Of a stretch of 64,000 nt of DNA, positions 1,592 through 59,179 are shown one piece after another; the first letter of the stretch is position 1; every line of letters starts with the position of its first letter. Origin of the DNA: Escherichia coli (GTDB lineage: Bacteria; Pseudomonadota; Gammaproteobacteria; Enterobacterales; Enterobacteriaceae); NCBI RefSeq assembly GCF_022846255.1, contig NZ_AP025682.1; one strand, 5' to 3'. Position numbers and translations under genes: made by a program. A model generated the notes under the pieces. It saw only the letters and a program-made list of their open reading frames with translations. It ran no database searches and was not told the origin of the DNA.

Positions 1592-1674
1592 ACACCAGAT
1601 TCCTCTCATTTAAAATCGCCCAGCCTCCAGCATCTATACTTATCTTTTTGCTCTGTTTTCTCACTGGAGGAGTC

Positions 1675-3900
1675 ATGCGGTGGATCCTGTTCATCCTCTT
1701 CTGCCTGTTGGGCGCACCTGCCCACGCGGTATCCATACCCGGCGTTACAACCACAACGACAACGGACTCAACGACTGAACCGGCCCCGGAACCGGATATC
1801 GAACAAAAAAAAGCGGCCTATGGCGCACTGGCGGATGTGCTGGATAATGACACCTCGCGTAAAGAGTTGATCGACCAGTTGCGCACCGTCGCCGCGACGC
1901 CCCCTGCGGAACCCGTACCGAAGATCGTGCCGCCGACGCTGGTTGAAGAGCAAACCGTGCTGCAAAAGGTCACCGAAGTCAGCCGCCATTATGGTGAAGC
2001 CCTTTCCGCCCGCTTCGGGCAACTTTATCGCAATATCACCGGCTCCCCGCATAAGCCGTTTAATCCACAAACCTTCAGCAATGCGCTGACCCACTTTTCA
2101 ATGTTAGCGGTATTAGTGTTTGGTTTTTACTGGCTGATTCGTCTGTGCGCACTGCCGCTGTATCGCAAAATGGGCCAGTGGGCGCGGCAAAAAAATCGTG
2201 AGCGCAGTAACTGGTTGCAGCTTCCGGCGATGATCATCGGGGCGTTTATTATCGACCTGCTGTTACTGGCACTGACATTATTTGTCGGCCAGGTATTAAG
2301 CGACAACCTGAATGCGGGCAGTCGCACCATCGCTTTCCAACAAAGTTTGTTTCTCAACGCCTTTGCCCTGATTGAATTTTTCAAAGCCGTACTACGCCTG
2401 ATTTTTTGCCCAAACGTGGCTGAACTGCGCCCGTTCACGATTCATGACGAGACCGCCCGTTACTGGAGTCGTCGCCTGAGCTGGTTAAGCAGCCTGATTG
2501 GCTATGGTCTGATTGTGGCTGTGCCGATTATCTCTAATCAGGTGAATGTACAGATAGGTGCGCTGGCAAACGTCATCATTATGCTGTGCATGACCGTCTG
2601 GGCGTTGTACCTGATTTTTCGTAATAAAAAAGAGATCACCCAGCATTTGCTCAACTTTGCGGAGCATTCGCTGGCCTTTTTCAGCCTGTTTATCCGCGCC
2701 TTTGCGCTGGTGTGGCACTGGCTGGCAAGCGCCTATTTTATCGTGCTGTTTTTCTTTTCGTTGTTCGATCCGGGCAACAGCCTGAAATTTATGATGGGTG
2801 CAACGGTGCGCAGCCTGGCGATTATTGGTATCGCAGCATTTGTTTCCGGTATGTTTTCCCGCTGGCTGGCAAAAACCATCACCCTCTCGCCACATACTCA
2901 GCGTAACTATCCAGAACTGCAAAAACGGCTGAATGGCTGGCTTTCGGCGGCGCTGAAAACGGCGCGTATTCTGACCGTCTGCGTGGCGGTAATGTTGCTG
3001 TTGAGCGCATGGGGATTGTTCGATTTCTGGAACTGGCTGCAAAACGGCGCGGGGCAGAAAACCGTAGATATCCTGATCCGTATCGCACTCATTCTTTTCT
3101 TCTCGGCGGTTGGCTGGACGGTGCTCGCCAGTTTGATCGAAAACCGGCTGGCTTCGGATATTCATGGCCGCCCGCTACCCAGCGCCCGTACGCGAACCCT
3201 GCTGACGCTGTTCCGTAACGCGCTGGCGGTGATTATCAGTACCATCACCATCATGATTGTGTTGTCGGAAATCGGCGTCAATATCGCGCCATTGCTGGCA
3301 GGTGCCGGGGCATTAGGTCTGGCTATCTCGTTTGGTTCGCAAACGCTGGTGAAAGATATCATTACCGGAGTATTTATTCAGTTTGAAAACGGCATGAACA
3401 CTGGAGATTTGGTGACTATCGGGCCGTTGACCGGCACTGTGGAACGGATGTCGATTCGCTCCGTGGGCGTGCGCCAGGATACCGGGGCGTATCACATCAT
3501 TCCGTGGTCTTCGATAACCACCTTTGCTAACTTCGTCCGCGGTATTGGTTCGGTAGTGGCAAATTATGATGTTGATCGCCATGAAGATGCTGATAAAGCC
3601 AATCAGGCACTGAAAGATGCGGTAGCGGAATTAATGGAAAACGAAGAAATTCGCGGGCTGGTTATTGGTGAACCGAACTTTGCCGGGATTGTCGGCTTAA
3701 GCAATACCGCGTTTACACTGCGTGTTTCGTTCACCACGCTGCCACTCAAACAGTGGACGGTCCGCTTTGCCCTCGACAGCCAGGTGAAAAAACATTTCGA
3801 CCTGGCGGGTGTTCGCGCGCCGGTGCAGACTTATCAGGTGCTGCCAGCTCCGGGCGCGGCCCCGGCTGAACCGTTGCCGCCGGGGGAGCCAACGCTTTAA
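1675..3900 (+). CDS. ybiO: MscS-family mechanosensitive channel YbiO
   Basis: ORF track 1648-3900; start at MRWILFILF gives 741 aa as I recall for YbiO; signal peptide, multi-TM region and MscS-like C-terminal domain. Confidence 0.9.
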
Positions 3901-4823
3901 CGCTGGCGATTGACAAAACGGCGGCGCTGCTCGTCGTTCATAAAGGTCCAGGCTATAAAGCGGCTCTGCTTTTGCCCCTGGGCCATCTCTTTTTTTACCA
4001 CCTTCACCGCACCTACGTCCGTCAGAGCACGATACAACGGCGGTAAGTTTTCACCACGAGATACCAGCGAGGTAAACCACATCACCTGCTTCGCGAAGCC
4101 TTTGCTCTCTTCAATCATCTTTTTGATAAAAGCGACCTCACCGCCTTCACACCACAACTCCTGTTGCTGACCACCAAAGTTCAGTGCATCGTCTTTGTTC
4201 AGCCCCAGGTTACGGCGTTTACGTTCACTACCTGCCCGTGCCGCAGCGGCGGAATCGTGGAATGGCGGGTTACACAAGGTCGCATCGTATTGCTCGTTTT
4301 TATGGATGATGCCGTTAAAAATCGCCCCACTCTCTTTTTGCCGACGCAGACGAATAGCGCGGTTAAGCCCCGGATTAGCACTGATGATCGCCTGCGCACT
4401 GCTTAACGCCTGGCTGCTGGTTTCACTACCGGTAAAACGCCAGCCATATTCATGTACGCCAATCAGCGGATAAATACAGTTCGCACCAACGCCGATATCC
4501 AGAATGCTGGCATTAGCTGGAATTGTTCCGCTTGCTTCAGCCAGTAAATCGGCAAGGTGATGAATATAATCCGCCCGGCCCGGTACTGGCGGGCAGAGAA
4601 AACCGTCCGGGATATCCCAGTTCGCTACGGCGTAAAAATGGGCCAGCAACGCCTTATTGAGCGCCTTCACCGCCAGCGGATTGGCAAAGTCTACGCTTTG
4701 CTCCCCGGTGGGTGTAAGCGTGAGGAATTGCCTGAGTTCAGGATTGACCTGACAAAGCGTGGCGAGATCGTAGCGGCTGTGATGACGGTTGCGCGGATGC
4801 AACCCCGGTTTCTGGGCGGACAT
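3897..4823 (-). CDS. rlmF: 23S rRNA m6A1618 methyltransferase RlmF
   Basis: ORF track 3897-4913; internal start [14 protein letters not shown] gives 308 aa; SAM-methyltransferase motifs ([15 protein letters not shown]). Confidence 0.92.
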
Positions 4824-5098
4824 AGCATTCTCCTTTAAGCAGCGGCGTAAGATACTCGCATAACGCGACAGGGTAAATATCTGGCTGCGTTTATCATTTC
4901 TAAAAACCTTCACATGGATATGGTTTATGGCAATTCACCATAAAAATCATCATCATGCATGTCATTGATTTGTCTTATTTTGTAAAAATATATCGTTCAA
5001 AAAATAAGCGCATCTCTGTCAATTTTTTGCGTCATTTTCATCGCGCAGGCGACCTACACTTATCTGGCACTACCCGTTGTATTTATGAGGATGTCATT

Positions 5099-5359
5099 AT
5101 GAAAAAGTGCCTCACACTACTGATTGCCACCGTCCTGAGCGGAATCTCTCTCACGGCTTATGCCGCGCAACCGATGAGTAACCTGGACAGAGGTCAACTA
5201 CGGCCCGCCGGTACCGTTTCGGCAACTGGCGCATCAAACCTAAGCGATCTGGAGGATAAACTGGCAGAAAAAGCGCGCGAACAAGGCGCGAAAGGTTATG
5301 TCATTAATTCCGCAGGCGGAAATGACCAGATGTTCGGTACTGCAATCATCTACAAATAA
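5099..5359 (+). CDS. mcbA: DUF1471 (YdgH/BhsA/McbA family) periplasmic protein McbA
   Basis: 86-aa ORF from ATG at 5099, signal peptide then the family C-terminal ...GTAIIYK. Confidence 0.9.
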   Translation: MKKCLTLLIATVLSGISLTAYAAQPMSNLDRGQLRPAGTVSATGASNLSDLEDKLAEKAREQGAKGYVINSAGGNDQMFGTAIIYK

Positions 5360-5374
5360 CCCCACCAACGTAAC

Positions 5375-5399
5375 TGCATTCGTCTCTGGATGCAGTTTT
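5375..5399 (+). terminator. intrinsic terminator after mcbA
   Basis: Hairpin ctgcattcgtctctggatgcag followed by TTTT. Confidence 0.6.
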
Positions 5400-5494
5400 C
5401 GTCCGATTTGTAAGCAAAAAACATCAAATATGAACGCAATGTAAATAAATGTATTTCTTTTTCGCGCAATGGGTGATAGAAAATCGCGCCAAGT

Positions 5495-5521
5495 GATAAT
5501 GCTTATCAAAATTATTATCAC
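5495..5521 (+). promoter_or_regulatory. Fur box in fiu promoter
   Basis: gataatgcttatcaaaattattatcac closely matches the Fur consensus gataatgataatcattatc; about 100 nt upstream of fiu. Confidence 0.75.
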
Positions 5522-5623
5522 TTGCACGTACGCTATCACGGGATTAACAGTGGCATCGCATCCGCAGAGATGCTTTCTCGTGACAGTGAAAATTTCACCA
5601 TATAAGAAAAAGTCACCTGCAAA

Positions 5624-7906
5624 ATGGAAAACAATCGCAATTTCCCTGCCAGACAATTTCATTCGCTCACGTTCTTTGCCGGTCTTTGTATTGGTATTAC
5701 GCCTGTGGCACAGGCACTCGCTGCCGAAGGGCAAGCTAACGCGGATGACACGCTGGTTGTCGAAGCATCAACGCCTTCGCTTTATGCGCCACAACAATCT
5801 GCCGATCCGAAATTCTCGCGTCCGGTAGCGGATACTACCCGCACGATGACGGTGATTTCTGAACAAGTGATTAAAGATCAGGGTGCAACCAACCTTACCG
5901 ACGCACTCAAAAACGTCCCCGGCGTGGGTGCGTTTTTTGCGGGTGAGAACGGTAACTCCACCACTGGCGACGCCATTTATATGCGCGGTGCCGATACCTC
6001 TAACAGTATTTATATCGATGGCATTCGCGATATCGGCAGCGTCTCGCGCGACACCTTCAATACCGAGCAGGTCGAAGTAATTAAAGGGCCGTCCGGCACC
6101 GACTACGGGCGCAGCGCACCGACAGGCTCGATCAATATGATCAGCAAACAGCCGCGCAATGATTCCGGCATTGACGCCTCCGCCAGTATTGGCAGCGCCT
6201 GGTTCCGCCGCGGCACGCTGGACGTCAATCAGGTCATTGGTGATACCACTGCGGTGCGCCTGAATGTAATGGGCGAAAAAACGCACGATGCCGGACGCGA
6301 CAAAGTCAAAAATGAGCGTTACGGCGTCGCCCCTTCTGTCGCTTTTGGCCTTGGTACAGCGAATCGTTTGTATCTTAATTATCTGCATGTCACCCAGCAC
6401 AACACGCCAGACGGCGGCATTCCGACCATCGGTTTACCGGGTTATTCTGCCCCATCTGCGGGAACAGCAGCCCTGAATCATTCCGGAAAAGTTGATACTC
6501 ATAACTTTTACGGCACAGATTCCGATTACGACGATTCGACCACCGACACCGCTACCATGCGTTTTGAGCACGACATCAACGATAACACCACCATTCGCAA
6601 CACTACGCGTTGGTCGCGCGTAAAGCAGGATTACCTGATGACGGCGATTATGGGTGGAGCGTCGAATATTACCCAGCCCACCAGCGATGTGAATAGCTGG
6701 ACGTGGTCACGCACGGCGAATACCAAAGATGTGAGTAACAAAATTCTCACCAACCAGACCAACCTGACCTCGACGTTCTATACCGGCGCTATCGGTCATG
6801 ATCTCAGTACCGGCGTGGAATTTACCCGCGAAACACAGACTAACTATGGCGTTAATCCGGTGACGTTACCGGCGGTAAATATTTATCATCCTGACAGCAG
6901 CATTCATCCCGGCGGCCTGACGCGCAACGGCGCAAACGCCAATGGTCAGACGGATACCTTCGCAATTTATGCCTTCGATACGCTGCAAATCACCCGTGAT
7001 TTTGAGCTGAACGGCGGGATCCGTCTGGATAATTATCATACTGAATATGACAGTGCTACCGCCTGCGGCGGCAGCGGGCGCGGTGCCATCACCTGCCCTG
7101 CTGGCGTGGCAAAAGGTTCTCCGGTCACCACCGTCGACACCGCCAAGTCGGGCAATCTGGTGAACTGGAAAGCCGGGGCGCTGTATCACCTGACGGAAAA
7201 CGGCAATGTCTATATTAACTATGCCGTTTCCCAGCAGCCGCCGGGCGGCAACAACTTCGCCCTTGCGCAGTCTGGCAGCGGTAACAGTGCCAACCGCACC
7301 GATTTTAAACCACAAAAAGCCAACACCAGCGAGATTGGCACCAAATGGCAGGTTCTGGATAAACGCCTGCTACTTACCGCCGCGCTGTTCCGTACTGATA
7401 TTGAAAATGAAGTTGAGCAAAATGATGACGGGACTTATTCGCAATATGGTAAGAAACGTGTCGAAGGCTACGAGATATCCGTGGCCGGGAATATCACCCC
7501 CGCATGGCAGATGATTGGCGGCTATACCCAGCAAAAAGCAACTATCAAAAACGGCAAAGATGTTGCCCAGGATGGTTCCTCATCGCTGCCGTATACCCCG
7601 GAACACGCCTTCACCTTATGGAGCCAGTATCAGGCAACCGATGATATTTCTGTTGGTGCGGGCGCACGGTATATCGGCAGTATGCATAAAGTTTCAGACG
7701 GCGCGGTGGGGACGCCAGCATTTACCGAAGGTTATTGGGTCGCCGACGCCAAACTGGGGTATCGGGTTAATCGCAATCTCGACTTCCAGCTAAACGTCTA
7801 CAACCTGTTTGATACCGATTACGTCGCCTCAATCAATAAGAGCGGCTACCGTTATCACCCGGGCGAGCCAAGAACCTTCTTGCTCACAGCTAATATGCAT
7901 TTCTGA
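5624..7906 (+). CDS. fiu: TonB-dependent catecholate siderophore receptor Fiu
   Basis: 760-aa ORF, signal peptide, TonB box, plug and beta-barrel, C-terminal aromatic residue; Fur box upstream. Confidence 0.96.
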   Translation: MENNRNFPARQFHSLTFFAGLCIGITPVAQALAAEGQANADDTLVVEASTPSLYAPQQSADPKFSRPVADTTRTMTVISEQVIKDQGATNLTDALKNVPGVGAFFAGENGNSTTGDAIYMRGADTSNSIYIDGIRDIGSVSRDTFNTEQVEVIKGPSGTDYGRSAPTGSINMISKQPRNDSGIDASASIGSAWFRRGTLDVNQVIGDTTAVRLNVMGEKTHDAGRDKVKNERYGVAPSVAFGLGTANRLYLNYLHVTQHNTPDGGIPTIGLPGYSAPSAGTAALNHSGKVDTHNFYGTDSDYDDSTTDTATMRFEHDINDNTTIRNTTRWSRVKQDYLMTAIMGGASNITQPTSDVNSWTWSRTANTKDVSNKILTNQTNLTSTFYTGAIGHDLSTGVEFTRETQTNYGVNPVTLPAVNIYHPDSSIHPGGLTRNGANANGQTDTFAIYAFDTLQITRDFELNGGIRLDNYHTEYDSATACGGSGRGAITCPAGVAKGSPVTTVDTAKSGNLVNWKAGALYHLTENGNVYINYAVSQQPPGGNNFALAQSGSGNSANRTDFKPQKANTSEIGTKWQVLDKRLLLTAALFRTDIENEVEQNDDGTYSQYGKKRVEGYEISVAGNITPAWQMIGGYTQQKATIKNGKDVAQDGSSSLPYTPEHAFTLWSQYQATDDISVGAGARYIGSMHKVSDGAVGTPAFTEGYWVADAKLGYRVNRNLDFQLNVYNLFDTDYVASINKSGYRYHPGEPRTFLLTANMHF

Positions 7907-7956
7907 TTCAGATGTGGGGCGCAAGGCTCACTAATGTTGATGGCGAGAGCAGGACT

Positions 7957-8054
7957 GCCTGATGCGCTGCGCTTATCAGGCCTACAAGGTTGTGCAATAC
8001 ACTGAATTCACATCATTTGGTAGGCCGGATAAGGCGTTCACGCCGCATCCGGCA
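7957..8054. repeat. REP elements (BIME-like pair) between fiu and ybiX
   Basis: gcctgatgcgctgcgcttatcaggcctaca and gtaggccggataaggcgttcacgccgcatccggca match the REP consensus. Confidence 0.85.
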
Positions 8055-8087
8055 CCTGAGCACCATTGCCTGCTGTTAAAAATCGGT

Positions 8088-8110
8088 GTGGGGCGCAGGC
8101 CCCACTTTTT
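8088..8110 (+). terminator. terminator-like hairpin plus T-run immediately upstream of the ybiX RBS
   Basis: gtggggcgcaggccccac followed by TTTTT, 12 nt before the ybiX ATG; the Shine-Dalgarno ggag lies just after the T-run. Confidence 0.5.
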
Positions 8111-8121
8111 GGAGAACTTGT

Positions 8122-8799
8122 ATGATGTACCACATTCCCGGCGTGTTATCGCCACAGGACGTCGCCCGTTTTCGCGAACAACTGGAACAAGCCGAATGGG
8201 TGGATGGGCGCGTCACCACCGGCGCACAAGGTGCGCAAGTTAAGAACAATCAACAAGTAGACACCCGCAGCGCCCTGTACGCCGCCCTGCAAAATGAGGT
8301 GCTGAACGCGGTTAACCAACATGCTTTGTTCTTTGCCGCGGCCTTGCCGCGTACCCTTTCCACGCCGCTGTTTAATCGCTATCAGAACAATGAAACCTAT
8401 GGTTTTCATGTGGATGGCGCAGTACGCAGCCATCCACAAAACGGCTGGATGCGCACTGACCTTTCTGCCACGCTGTTTTTAAGCGATCCAGAAAGCTACG
8501 ACGGCGGCGAACTGGTCGTTAATGACACCTTCGGGCAACATCGGGTAAAACTCCCGGCAGGCGATCTGGTGTTGTATCCCTCCAGCAGCCTGCATTGCGT
8601 GACACCCGTAACCCGCGGCGTGCGAGTGGCATCATTTATGTGGATCCAGTCGATGATCCGCGATGATAAAAAGCGCGCCATGCTGTTTGAACTGGACAAC
8701 AATATTCAGTCGCTGAAAAGCCACTACGGCGAAAGTGAAGAGATCCTGTCGCTGCTCAATCTTTATCATAATCTGCTGCGGGAATGGTCGGAGATCTGA
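8122..8799 (+). CDS. ybiX: PKHD-type Fe(II)/2-oxoglutarate-dependent hydroxylase YbiX
   Basis: ORF track 8086-8799; start at MMYHIPGVL gives 225 aa; HxD...H iron-binding motif context; downstream of fiu as in the known fiu-ybiX unit. Confidence 0.92.
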
Positions 8800-8872
8800 C
8801 GCTTGAACTGCCCGAGTTCGTCCCTATATTAGCTACACTTAACTGTACAAGCATTGATATGGGGAGGACGAT

Positions 8873-9139
8873 ATGGCATCCGGTTGGGCTAATGATGACG
8901 CCGTCAACGAACAGATCAACAGTACAATTGAAGATGCGATTGCCCGCGCTCGGGGTGAAATTCCGCGTGGCGAAAGCCTGTATGAATGTGAAGAGTGCGG
9001 AGCCCTCATCCCGCAGGCCCGTCGGGAAGCCATTCCTGGCGTGCGCTTATGCATTCATTGTCAGCAGGAGAAAGATTTACAAAAACCAGATTATACAGGA
9101 TATAATCGCAGAGGTTCGAAAGACAGCCAGTTACGTTAA
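8873..9139 (+). CDS. ybiI: DksA/TraR-family C4-type zinc-finger protein YbiI
   Basis: 88-aa ORF with CxxC-N17-CxxC (CEECG...CIHCQ). Confidence 0.9.
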   Translation: MASGWANDDAVNEQINSTIEDAIARARGEIPRGESLYECEECGALIPQARREAIPGVRLCIHCQQEKDLQKPDYTGYNRRGSKDSQLR

Positions 9140-9403
9140 CTACAACTGGCGGGATGTATAGCGAATATAATTTGGATTTTGCGTGGCATTCCGTGCCTTT
9201 AACGCTACCGTGACTGCCACGCGGTATAAAACAAGTTCATAAGTACAACAAATAAATGGTTTATCAGTATGTTAGATATCAATCAATTTATTTGAACAAG
9301 GCGGTCAATTCTCTTCGATTTTATCTCTCGAAAAAAAACGTGATACTCATCACATCGACGAAACAACGTCACTTATACAAAAATCACCTGCGAGAGATTA
9401 ATT

Positions 9404-9664
9404 ATGAAAACTATCAATACTGTTGTTGCTGCTATGGCTCTTTCAACTCTGTCATTTGGCGTGTTCGCGGCGGAACCGGTAACGGCATCCCAGGCACAGA
9501 ACATGAATAAAATCGGCGTGGTTTCTGCCGATGGCGCATCCACCCTCGATGCCCTGGAAGCGAAACTGGCTGAGAAAGCCGCGGCGGCCGGTGCCAGTGG
9601 ATACAGCATTACTTCCGCCACCAACAACAATAAATTAAGCGGTACTGCGGTAATTTATAAGTAA
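9404..9664 (+). CDS. ybiJ: DUF1471 (YdgH/BhsA/McbA family) periplasmic protein YbiJ
   Basis: 86-aa ORF, signal peptide, C-terminal ...GTAVIYK; paralog of mcbA. Confidence 0.92.
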   Translation: MKTINTVVAAMALSTLSFGVFAAEPVTASQAQNMNKIGVVSADGASTLDALEAKLAEKAAAAGASGYSITSATNNNKLSGTAVIYK

Positions 9665-9667
9665 TTC

Positions 9668-9744
9668 GTAGGACGGATAAGGCGTTTACGCCGCATCCGG
9701 CAACAGATGCCTGATGCGACGCTACCGCGTCTTATCAGACCTAC
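9668..9744. repeat. REP elements downstream of ybiJ
   Basis: gtaggacggataaggcgtttacgccgcatccggca and gcctgatgcgacgctaccgcgtcttatcagacctac. Confidence 0.85.
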
Positions 9745-9864
9745 AAAATCCGAACCGTTGGCTGGATCAGGCGTTTACGCTACGTTCAGCACAAGTATTT
9801 CCCTGTCTGTTTGCCGACAGACGCATATGCTCTAACCCTCATTGATCCTATGTTACCCTTGTTT

Positions 9865-9892
9865 GCCCGTCCGCCACTGGACGGGCTTTTTT

Positions 9893-9894
<2 letters not shown>
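9865..9894 (+). terminator. intrinsic terminator between convergent ybiJ and ybiC
   Basis: gcccgtccgccactggacgggc followed by TTTTTTTT. Confidence 0.7.
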
Positions 9895-12081
<2,187 letters not shown>

Positions 12082-28987: not shown

Positions 28988-29977
28988 TTAGCCACCAATG
29001 TACGATAAGTTTTGCGTAATACCGGTGTTATTTTGATGCAGGAAATGGGTCTGTTTTTTCTCCCGCAGCGCCGCTGAAATACGCGCTTCCAGCGCCTGTT
29101 GCTGGGTATCGTCTTCCAGCAGATCGCGCAGGTTAACGCCGCCTTCACCAAACAGGCAGAGATGGAGTTTACCAATGGAGGAAACGCGCAGGCGGTTGCA
29201 AGTGGCGCAGAAGTCTTTTTCATACGGCATGATAAGGCCAATCTCTCCGGCGTAATCCGGATGACAAAAGACTTGCGCGGGACCGTCGCTGCGTTGACGT
29301 AATTGGTGGATCCAGCCGCGACGCAGTAGCTCGTCACGCAGAACCTGACCAGAGATGTGATGCTTACGGAAGAGCTCGCTGCCCTCGCCCGTTTCCATCA
29401 ATTCGATGAAACGCAGCTGGATAGGGCGATGCTGGATCCAGTTCAGAAAGGTGTCGAGCTGATGATGATTAACATCACGCATCAGCACGGTATTGACTTT
29501 GACCTTCTCAAAACCGGCCTCAAATGCAGCATCGATTCCTGCCATGACCTGGTTGAATTTATCCTGCCCGGTAATGGCATGAAACTGGCGAGCGTCAAGG
29601 CTATCAACGCTGACGTTGATGCCAGTAAGTCCAGCATCGCGCCAGTTCGCCACATCGCGTTCCAGACGGTAACCATTGGTGGTGACCGCAATCTGGCGGA
29701 TAGCGTCGTTTTCCCGCACAGCGGCGATGATATCGGTAAAGTCGCGGCGTAAAGATGGCTCACCGCCCGTCAGACGGACTTTTTCGGTGCCAAGACTGGC
29801 GAAGGCGCGCGTAACCCGGCGAATTTCATCGACGGTAAGAAAGCCTTTATTGGTGACGCCGCTCGGTTTGTAGCCATCCGGCAGGCAGTAGGTGCAACGA
29901 AAGTTACACACATCGGTAATCGACAGGCGCAAGTAGTAAAACTTACGCGCAAATGCATCAGTCAGTTGTGAAGCCAT
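28988..29977 (-). CDS. moaA: GTP 3',8-cyclase (radical SAM)
   Basis: ORF track 28988-30058; 329 aa from [31 protein letters not shown] (CxxxCxxC radical SAM motif). Confidence 0.96.
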
Positions 29978-29979
29978 GT

Positions 29980-30125
29980 ACACCTTTCCAGATACGGGAG
30001 GCGAAGTCATTTCTTCCTTCGCCCTGGTGGCAATCTTTACAAGCATTGTCACGGCCAAAGCACCGTATCAGTTGACCCAGGTGCAGAGGCTAGAGTGTTT
30101 AGTGGTTAAGCCGATACTAGCGTGT
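29980..30125 (-). promoter_or_regulatory. moaA 5' leader; expected location of the Moco riboswitch RNA motif
   Basis: Long GC-structured leader directly upstream of moaA; assigned from known biology of the E. coli moaA leader, boundaries approximate and not folded. Confidence 0.5.
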
Positions 30126-38957: not shown

Positions 38958-39434
38958 ATGAAACTCATCAGTAACGATCTGCGCGATGGCGATAAGCTGC
39001 CGCATCGTCATGTCTTTAACGGCATGGGTTACGATGGCGATAATATTTCACCGCATCTGGCGTGGGATGATGTTCCTGCGGGAACGAAAAGTTTTGTTGT
39101 CACCTGCTACGACCCGGATGCGCCAACCGGCTCCGGCTGGTGGCACTGGGTAGTTGTTAATTTACCCGCTGATACCCGCGTATTACCGCAAGGGTTTGGC
39201 TCTGGTATGGTAGCAATGCCAGACGGCGTTTTGCAGACGCGTACCGACTTTGGTAAAACCGGGTACGATGGTGCAGCGCCGCCGAAAGGCGAAACCCATC
39301 GCTACATTTTTACCGTTCACGCGCTGGATGTAGAACGTATTGATGTCGATGAAGGTGCCAGCGGCGCGATGGTCGGGTTTAACGTTCATTTCCACTCTCT
39401 GGCAAGCGCCTCGATTACTGCGATGTTTAGTTAA
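38958..39434 (+). CDS. ybhB: PEBP/RKIP-family (kinase inhibitor-like) protein YbhB
   Basis: 158-aa ORF with PEBP motifs (YDPDAPT..., GxHRY). Confidence 0.92.
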   Translation: MKLISNDLRDGDKLPHRHVFNGMGYDGDNISPHLAWDDVPAGTKSFVVTCYDPDAPTGSGWWHWVVVNLPADTRVLPQGFGSGMVAMPDGVLQTRTDFGKTGYDGAAPPKGETHRYIFTVHALDVERIDVDEGASGAMVGFNVHFHSLASASITAMFS

Positions 39435-44887: not shown

Positions 44888-44962
44888 TTAATATCCTGTT
44901 CTTTCTGTATGACTCATACAGAATTCCTTTATTGATTGTCATTATCACGACAACAAAATTTT

Positions 44963-58977: not shown

Positions 58978-59135
58978 TGTTAAGCCCTCGTCATGAGGGC
59001 TTTATCTTCATATTGTTCAAATCACCAGCAAACACCGACATATTTGCAACTCAATATTCACAACAACCTTACACTGCGACACTATTTTCGCTATGGTTAT
59101 GCGTAAGCATTGCTGTTGCTTCGTCACGGCAATAT

Positions 59136-59154
59136 AATGAGAATTATTATCATT
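59136..59154 (+). promoter_or_regulatory. Fur-like box upstream of gpmA
   Basis: aatgagaattattatcatt resembles the Fur consensus; gpmA is, as I recall, Fur-repressed. Confidence 0.5.
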
Positions 59155-59179
59155 AAAAGATGATTTGAGGAGTAAGTAT

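Follow-up and report, generated by a model that had tools for sequence, protein, structure and literature searches.

Described receptor-dioxygenase pairs and the fiu-ybiX locus

Genes for catecholate receptors of the Fiu/PiuA type and for 2-oxoglutarate (2OG) dioxygenases of the YbiX/PiuC/CciO type are frequent chromosomal neighbours: cciT/fiu and cciO/ybiX have been described as syntenic across Proteobacteria (PMC12004947), and in a study published in 2025 a cciT/fiu homologue was found next to 87.7% of cciO/ybiX homologues (PMC12004943). Here we consider fiu-ybiX and its neighbours mcbA, ybiI and ybiJ on a 64-kb stretch of Escherichia coli chromosome, the whole of which is referred to below as the window. 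The core of this locus is very probably a Fur-repressed bicistronic fiu-ybiX unit, to which the neighbouring genes do not belong. The piuA-piuC loci of Pseudomonas aeruginosa and Acinetobacter are, to our knowledge, without ybiI, mcbA and ybiJ.

What the dioxygenase does for its cognate receptor is a real and active question, and losing the genes is one contributor to resistance against cefiderocol and further drugs conjugated to catechol. The cciT-cciO operon of Caulobacter crescentus, which encodes a Fiu-like receptor with a 2OG dioxygenase, is regulated by Fur too, and CciO is strictly needed for CciT function; cefiderocol is not imported by CciT, and its ligand is proposed to be endogenous (PMC12004947). 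A small RNA (sRNA) gene is annotated between cciT and cciO (PMC12004943), which recalls the structured fiu-ybiX spacer of E. coli. The two genes of the pair in the window are:

5624-7906, plus strand: fiu, encoding a 760-residue TonB-dependent catecholate receptor (open reading frame and RefSeq annotation)
8122-8799, plus strand: ybiX, encoding a 225-residue PKHD-type Fe(II)/2OG dioxygenase without a signal peptide

Positions 4500-10500 were found, over at least 80% of their length and mostly at 95-99.9% identity, in 5415 of 5426 complete E. coli genomes. Both K-12 and a 99.9% identical RefSeq genome have the order rlmF (minus strand), mcbA, fiu, ybiX, ybiI, ybiJ (all plus), ybiE (minus), hcxB (minus). 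The K-12 unit fiu-ybiX(-ybiI) (b0805-b0803), flanked by mcbA and ybiJ, matches that of the window in genes, order and strand, with aligned blocks 96.9% and 97.7% identical, but its fiu-ybiX spacer is 41 nt long as opposed to 215 nt in the window strain. An initial annotation of the window had placed five genes on one strand within 4.6 kb, which the open reading frames and the RefSeq annotation of the 99.9% identical genome bear out with exactly the same coordinates. Its gene and domain identifications also hold: each of the five proteins passes the NCBIfam cut-off of its own named model (5/5), and the Pfam domains are as it had claimed, namely DUF1471 (YdgH_BhsA-like) twice, a TonB-dependent receptor plug and barrel, 2OG-FeII_Oxy_3 with PKHD_C, and zf-dksA_traR. 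This is an ordinary, fully annotated E. coli locus, and since its Fur control, operon status, synteny and clinical relevance through cefiderocol are all published, the finding of that annotation adds nothing to published work. Possible leads are instead the conserved spacer hairpin, a polymorphic repetitive extragenic palindrome (REP) insertion, and a 2-hydroxy-acid oxidase gene joined to the pair in Betaproteobacteria.

Fur control of fiu

Fiu has the features of a Fiu/PiuA-clade TonB-dependent transporter, i.e. a signal peptide, a TonB box (DTLVVEA, residues 42-48, read from the sequence), a plug and a 22-strand barrel (Pfam Plug and TonB_dep_Rec_b-barrel). It scores 1503 bits against the NCBIfam Fiu equivalog model (cut-off 686), and its best match in the PDB is Fiu itself (6BPM, 1637 bits over residues 34-760), followed by PiuA and PiuD. 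Upstream of the gene lie two regulatory elements:

5473-5500, plus strand: candidate sigma-70-like fiu promoter, GTGATA, a 16-nt spacer and GATAAT, from a consensus scan only
5495-5519, no strand assigned: Fur box, two overlapping 19-mers, GATAATGCTTATCAAAATTATTATC

The -10 hexamer GATAAT of the candidate promoter overlaps the Fur box. Fur boxes were scored as mismatches to the 19-bp consensus GATAATGATAATCATTATC, and the best matches at fiu are 5495-5513 (four mismatches) and the overlapping 5501-5519 (five mismatches). A strict scan of the window (at most three mismatches) reported no site at fiu and a sole match at gpmA; because it missed the fiu site, the threshold was relaxed and conservation was brought in. 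At four mismatches or fewer the consensus is matched at only three places in the 64-kb window. In almost every Enterobacteriaceae locus a match with at most five mismatches stands approximately 121-138 nt upstream of the fiu start, the two exceptions being 166 and 201 nt away, and in Tatumella its distance from the receptor start is 50-62 nt. Of 77 receptor genes, 44 have a site with at most four mismatches in their upstream region, compared with 3 of 2674 equal-sized background windows. Given this conserved position across Enterobacterales and the enrichment over background, we judge the predicted fiu Fur box, as claimed in the initial annotation, to be real; it is degenerate when taken alone and convincing by its conservation. 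The same window scan at up to five mismatches returned no Fur-like site upstream of ybiX, ybiI or ybiJ.

Published work agrees with this assignment. Repression by Fur has been shown for a fiu promoter-lacZ fusion in a paper that also counts fiu-ybiX among the operons known to be targeted by Fur (PMC4676285); chromatin immunoprecipitation-exonuclease (ChIP-exo) and expression data place fiu in the core Fur regulon of nine E. coli strains (PMC10164565); and ybiX expression has been cited as Fur-dependent (PMC3136457).

Elsewhere in the window, the best Fur-box match overall comprises overlapping sites at 59133-59157 (three mismatches) in the galM-gpmA spacer upstream of gpmA, and a Fur-like site with four mismatches is found at 44928-44946 in the ybhH-ybhI spacer.

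Conservation of the fiu-ybiX pair

A YbiX scan, taking one genome per species, yielded 80 loci ranging from Escherichia to Beta-, Alpha-, Gamma- and Epsilonproteobacteria. A Fiu/PiuA-type receptor gene is upstream on the same strand in 78 of these, and the gap between receptor gene and ybiX is at most 85 nt in 74. The exceptions to the pairing are Tatumella sp. JGM91 (in the L042/L043/L047 set of sampled loci), whose ybiX has no receptor gene within 6 kb, and Citrobacter sp. Awk 4, in which fiu is mostly deleted (a 42-residue remnant) and the ybiX match is truncated. In distant taxa the receptor is 23-39% identical to Fiu and the YbiX homologue 47-54% identical to YbiX, and for two such receptors the closest PDB entries are, by a wide margin, PiuA, PiuD and Fiu. 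The ybiX of Leclercia NCTC13032 (L047) has two in-frame stops, possibly assembly errors, and was left out of the YbiX alignment.

The test of fiu/ybiX co-occurrence proposed with the initial annotation had in effect already been done, since the 2025 survey cited above (PMC12004943) reports the published counterpart of our 78 of 80. The shared strand and conserved adjacency of fiu and ybiX are seen directly, the spacer between them carries a terminator-like hairpin, and the operon call itself comes from the literature. The annotation's proposal of one Fur-controlled unit agrees with the synteny test together with the operon listing of PMC4676285 and with PMC3136457.

YbiX and its substrate

YbiX is, as read from its sequence, a cytoplasmic Fe(II)/2OG dioxygenase with an intact catalytic triad: the HxD...H iron triad, the 2OG-binding arginine, the double-stranded beta-helix and the PKHD_C helices characteristic of PKHD-type enzymes are all present. 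Close relatives have solved structures (3DKQ, and for PiuC 9GHL and 9QN0-4); a literature search for a paper on the 2026 PiuC structures (9GHL, 9QN0-4) found none.

Published genetics connects the enzyme with uptake through the receptor, as in the need of CciT for CciO. A ybiX nonsense mutation made E. coli resistant to a catechol-peptide nucleic acid conjugate (10.1101/2023.10.30.564798), and resistance to siderophore drugs, cefiderocol among them, goes along with piuC mutations (PMC11878004). In an evolution experiment the mutant with the highest resistance combined a disrupted cirA with an insertion sequence (IS) between fiu and ybiX, and deleting both cirA and ybiX raised the minimum inhibitory concentration of cefiderocol (10.1101/2025.02.14.638246). 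The initial annotation's remark that YbiX has no known substrate is still true of the literature we found, which reports none for the family (PMC12004947, PMC12004943). We consider it a little short of an even chance that the substrate is a small carboxylate or catecholate of the Fiu pathway, whether the ligand that is imported or an iron ligand of the cell's own.

The distant loci offer a more specific lead. At 22 of the 34 non-Enterobacterales loci a gene of the flavin mononucleotide (FMN)-dependent 2-hydroxy-acid oxidase family adjoins the ybiX homologue on the same strand, starting between -28 and +27 nt from its end, which gives the order receptor - dioxygenase - oxidase. Oxidase-bearing loci include those of Nitrosomonas, Methylophilus, Zoogloea, Rubrivivax and Aliarcobacter, and many Betaproteobacteria (L050-L080, e.g. 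L062:6673-7746 and L054:6684-7739). The nearest solved relatives of the oxidase are L-lactate oxidase, 4-hydroxymandelate oxidase and glycolate oxidase, and its own scores fall below the named NCBIfam cut-offs. Genes for TonB, ExbB and ExbD also recur in distant receptor-ybiX loci (L048-L081, e.g. L080:2916-3653, L068:7340-8074, L078:3105-3539 and L061:5361-5915), and a cytochrome b561 gene is present in eight. In the portion of PMC12004943 available to us, the next commonest neighbours of the pair are PepSY-TM and Sel1 proteins, and the FMN oxidase is not named.

CsiD and LhgO of E. coli are a known pairing of a 2OG dioxygenase with a 2-hydroxy-acid oxidase. The arrangement at many distant YbiX loci, a 2OG dioxygenase gene followed directly by a 2-hydroxy-acid oxidase gene, resembles this pair, but YbiX is of the PKHD family and not a CsiD, the oxidase is of the FMN_dh type whereas LhgO is FAD-dependent, and the E. 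coli fiu-ybiX locus itself has no oxidase gene. By this analogy the pairing suggests alpha-hydroxylation of a small carboxylate, which we offer as a lead and not as a result. We hold it to be doubtful as it stands that the YbiX family acts by alpha-carbon hydroxylation on a small carboxylate connected with Fiu/PiuA-type iron import, be it imported ligand or endogenous iron ligand; if true, it would narrow the substrate search behind piuC- and ybiX-linked resistance to siderophore antibiotics.

This lead competes with the signal from the fold, which resembles prolyl hydroxylases. It is unlikely, but among the alternatives the one that survives best, that YbiX hydroxylates proteins in the manner of the prolyl hydroxylases, senses O2, Fe(II) or 2OG and controls the amount or activity of its cognate receptor, rather than acting on the siderophore.

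The fiu-ybiX spacer

In K-12 and most E. coli the 41-nt spacer consists of the hairpin GTGGGGC-GCAG-GCCCCAC, TTTTT, and then the ybiX ribosome-binding site. In the window two features are placed here:

8088-8110, plus strand: intercistronic hairpin, GTGGGGC-GCAG-GCCCCAC then TTTTT, terminator-like, 16 nt before the ybiX ATG
7913-8086, plus strand: 174-nt insertion relative to K-12, from alignment with short-spacer Escherichia strains

A perfect GC-rich hairpin of 7-10 bp is present in 21 of 21 distinct Enterobacterales fiu-ybiX spacers, starting 5-21 nt past the fiu stop and ending 16-22 nt before the ybiX ATG. Its stems vary by genus (GCGGGGCG/CGCCCCGC, GGGGGGC/GCCCCCT, GCCGCAG/CTGCGGC, CGCCACCTG/CAGGTGGCG), and the predicted structure is kept while its sequence turns over. 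Because the Klebsiella stems fell out of register when the spacers were aligned with MAFFT, stem pairs were counted from a hairpin-anchored extraction and not with a structure-pair tool; extraction by RNAfold had, for some spacers, returned minor secondary hairpins. The stem is perfect and conserved, its U-run is 3-6 nt (approximately 7-8 nt in an intrinsic terminator), and the ybiX Shine-Dalgarno sequence directly follows. Several distant lineages also have a hairpin and T-run in the spacer; in others the spacer is only 6-25 nt and has no hairpin. In Pseudocitrobacter a longer REP-like hairpin replaces the usual one.

The 174-nt insertion holds a bacterial interspersed mosaic element (BIME) of two inverted REPs (approximately 7957-7985 and 8020-8054), which pair with each other in the predicted fold. 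Two copies of a 20-nt direct repeat of the hairpin, 174 nt apart, mark its limits: the one at 7914-7931 is decayed and the one at 8088-8105 intact. A sub-threshold, REP-like match to Rfam naRNA4 at 8023-8101 is weaker than the copy at 9671-9741. Of 5426 complete E. coli genomes, 557 (approximately 10%) carry the insertion, which K-12 lacks; E. whittamii (L002) has it as well. Neither the hairpin nor the insertion is mentioned in the initial annotation, and both bear directly on the question of fiu-ybiX co-transcription.

The pair very probably operates as follows. Sequence and literature show the first step, in which Fe-Fur occupies 5495-5519 over the candidate fiu -10 element when iron is plentiful and the promoter fires when iron is scarce. 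Transcription through fiu would then meet the hairpin and its short U-run before the ybiX ribosome-binding site, where some transcripts would end or be stabilised and the rest continue, so that much receptor and less enzyme would be made. The hairpin may accordingly be a leaky terminator or an RNA-stabilising element that sets a high receptor-to-enzyme ratio, and by analogy with Caulobacter it could also be a regulated attenuator or the source of a 3'-derived sRNA. The REP/BIME insertion may provide a second large hairpin that lowers ybiX expression further and, being polymorphic among E. coli strains, may alter ybiX dosage. Fiu, as described in the literature, imports Fe(III)-catecholates and catechol-conjugated drugs over the outer membrane via TonB, and YbiX appears from the genetics, in part, to be required for the Fiu/PiuA-type route.

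Several points weigh against this account. The fiu Fur box, with its four to five mismatches, is weak taken alone; co-transcription rests on literature, spacing and synteny; and the 80 loci behind the synteny were picked by similarity to E. coli YbiX and are phylogenetically non-independent. The hairpin with its TTTTT could act as an efficient terminator, and a weak peak from systematic evolution of ligands by exponential enrichment (SELEX) inside fiu, reported in a section on the extracytoplasmic-stress sigma factor, could be an internal promoter (PMC5493296). For the role of YbiX, the nearest folds outside its own family are protein prolyl hydroxylases and not small-molecule enzymes.

Two of these points, the terminator-like hairpin with TTTTT and the weak SELEX peak inside fiu (PMC5493296), would together with the 215-nt structured spacer of the window strain fit a ybiX transcribed independently of fiu, in which the hairpin is a full terminator, a promoter lies in the 3' end of fiu, and the adjacency is functional and does not reflect an operon. 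We think this very unlikely. Many distant loci have a spacer of just 6-25 nt without a hairpin, and that of K-12 measures 41 nt; the U-run is short, at 3-6 nt; ybiX expression is Fur-dependent (PMC3136457, PMC4676285), yet no Fur-like site is near ybiX; and the mutant of highest resistance had the spacer IS alongside its disrupted cirA (10.1101/2025.02.14.638246). Transcription of ybiX with fiu from the Fur-controlled promoter remains the preferred reading.

Genes flanking the pair

The remaining three plus-strand genes, and a promoter element between ybiX and ybiI, are:

5099-5359, plus strand: mcbA (ybiM), encoding an 86-residue DUF1471 periplasmic protein (PF07338, E 1e-19; NCBIfam McbA 170 bits, cut-off 110)
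8833-8839, plus strand: sigma-S-type -10 element of the ybiI promoter, (G)CTACACT(TAA), the exact hexamer inferred from alignment
8873-9139, plus strand: ybiI, encoding an 88-residue DksA/TraR-family C4 zinc-finger protein (PF01258)
9404-9664, plus strand: ybiJ, encoding an 86-residue DUF1471 protein (NCBIfam YbiJ 173 bits, cut-off 110)

McbA and YbiJ are 47% identical over 86 residues, and both show the features of DUF1471/YhcN proteins, a signal peptide and a C-terminal YdgH/BhsA/McbA-like domain of approximately 55 residues (PF07338 at residues 34-86 in each). They represent two of at least seven DUF1471 paralogue types matched. Against the BhsA model they score 101 (McbA) and 116 (YbiJ) bits, compared with 75 and 81 bits against each other's model (NCBIfam), and a recent local duplication was rejected because each is closer to BhsA than to the other. 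Among the synteny loci mcbA and ybiJ are confined to part of the Enterobacteriaceae, and no link of either to iron was found in this analysis; they are independent DUF1471 periplasmic stress/biofilm genes outside the fiu-ybiX unit. Of the initial annotation's picture of DUF1471 paralogs bracketing the unit, the paralogy and the position stand, with the two genes being neighbours of the unit and not members of it. A single iron-related module of all five genes, in which the DUF1471 proteins would serve Fiu as periplasmic partners, is highly improbable. In its favour, Escherichia, Citrobacter, Leclercia, Klebsiella and Raoultella share the gene order and strand, and two paralogues within 4.6 kb are somewhat unlikely by chance. 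Against it, Pantoea, Serratia, Rouxiella, Tatumella and all distant loci keep the pair without mcbA, ybiI and ybiJ, both proteins match the BhsA model better than each other's, fiu and ybiJ are each preceded by an intergenic gap of 264 nt, and neither mcbA nor ybiJ is in the Fur-1 iModulon gene list as quoted from PMC10164565.

YbiI has a C4 zinc finger of the form CxxC-N17-CxxC after an N-terminal helix, visible in the alignment as CEEC...CIHC, and scores 158 bits against NF008243 (cut-off 96) and 59.8 against TIGR02419 (cut-off 59.7). Its solved structure is the nuclear magnetic resonance model 2KGO (E. coli YbiI). It matches TraR with E 4e-10, in an HMMER alignment that begins at residue 11, and where the family has an acidic tip (DxxDxA) that reaches the RNA polymerase active site through the secondary channel, YbiI has N7-D8-D9-A10, out of register with TraR D6. 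Rescue of dksA auxotrophy by ybiI overexpression has been reported only as data not shown (PMC2613031).

The presence of ybiI between ybiX and ybiJ is limited to Escherichia, Citrobacter, Klebsiella, Raoultella, Leclercia, Silvania and Pseudocitrobacter; Kluyvera, Pantoea, Serratia, Rouxiella, Tatumella and every distant locus lack it. As part of a conserved unit it was ruled out, given that Kluyvera and all non-Enterobacteriaceae are without it. Its promoter has been shown to depend on sigma-S and to form open complexes (PMC4447067), and a sigma-S SELEX peak falls in the ybiX-ybiI spacer (PMC5493296). A CTAYACT-like element is present in most of 10 aligned ybiX-ybiI spacers and degenerate in Leclercia and Silvania. 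The gene is also a member of the Fur-1 iModulon, being expressed together with the Fur regulon (PMC10164565), and serum induces it (PMC4145685). As the terminator scan returned none directly after ybiX, the simplest reading is that ybiI, besides having its own sigma-S promoter, is probably also reached by read-through from ybiX. The initial annotation was right to place a DksA/TraR-like gene beside fiu-ybiX, but the gene, for all its co-expression with Fur targets, is a lineage-restricted addition with its own sigma-S promoter. Over the ybiI stop codon lies a 9-bp palindromic hairpin (9126-9150); because it lacks a plus-strand T-run, no obvious intrinsic terminator of ybiI stands ahead of the 264-nt gap to ybiJ.

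Other features of the window

Downstream of ybiJ the following elements are found, of which the initial annotation names neither zbiJ nor ybiE:

9671-9741, plus strand: REP/BIME element in the ybiJ 3' region (Rfam naRNA4, 72.7 bits, gathering score 59.5)
9767-9826, minus strand: ybiE, an annotated small-protein gene of 19 residues overlapping zbiJ, coordinates transferred from annotation
9798-9894, plus strand: sRNA zbiJ (K-12 b4814), from the K-12 RefSeq annotation, its first and last 25 nt matching the window exactly

The end of zbiJ is a strong terminator, a hairpin (9865-9886) with a T-run, and its 3' end overlaps the hcxB stop codon by 2 nt. The only match of a literature search on ZbiJ was an author-name artefact.

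Two differences from the near-identical strain FEX669 were seen: at approximately 38958-38961 the window is without the 1.29-kb InsQ/TnpB gene that FEX669 has between ybhB and bioA, and ybiO (1648-3900) is intact in the window and frameshifted in FEX669. A molybdenum cofactor riboswitch is found at 29965-30109 on the minus strand, upstream of moaA (Rfam, 103 bits).

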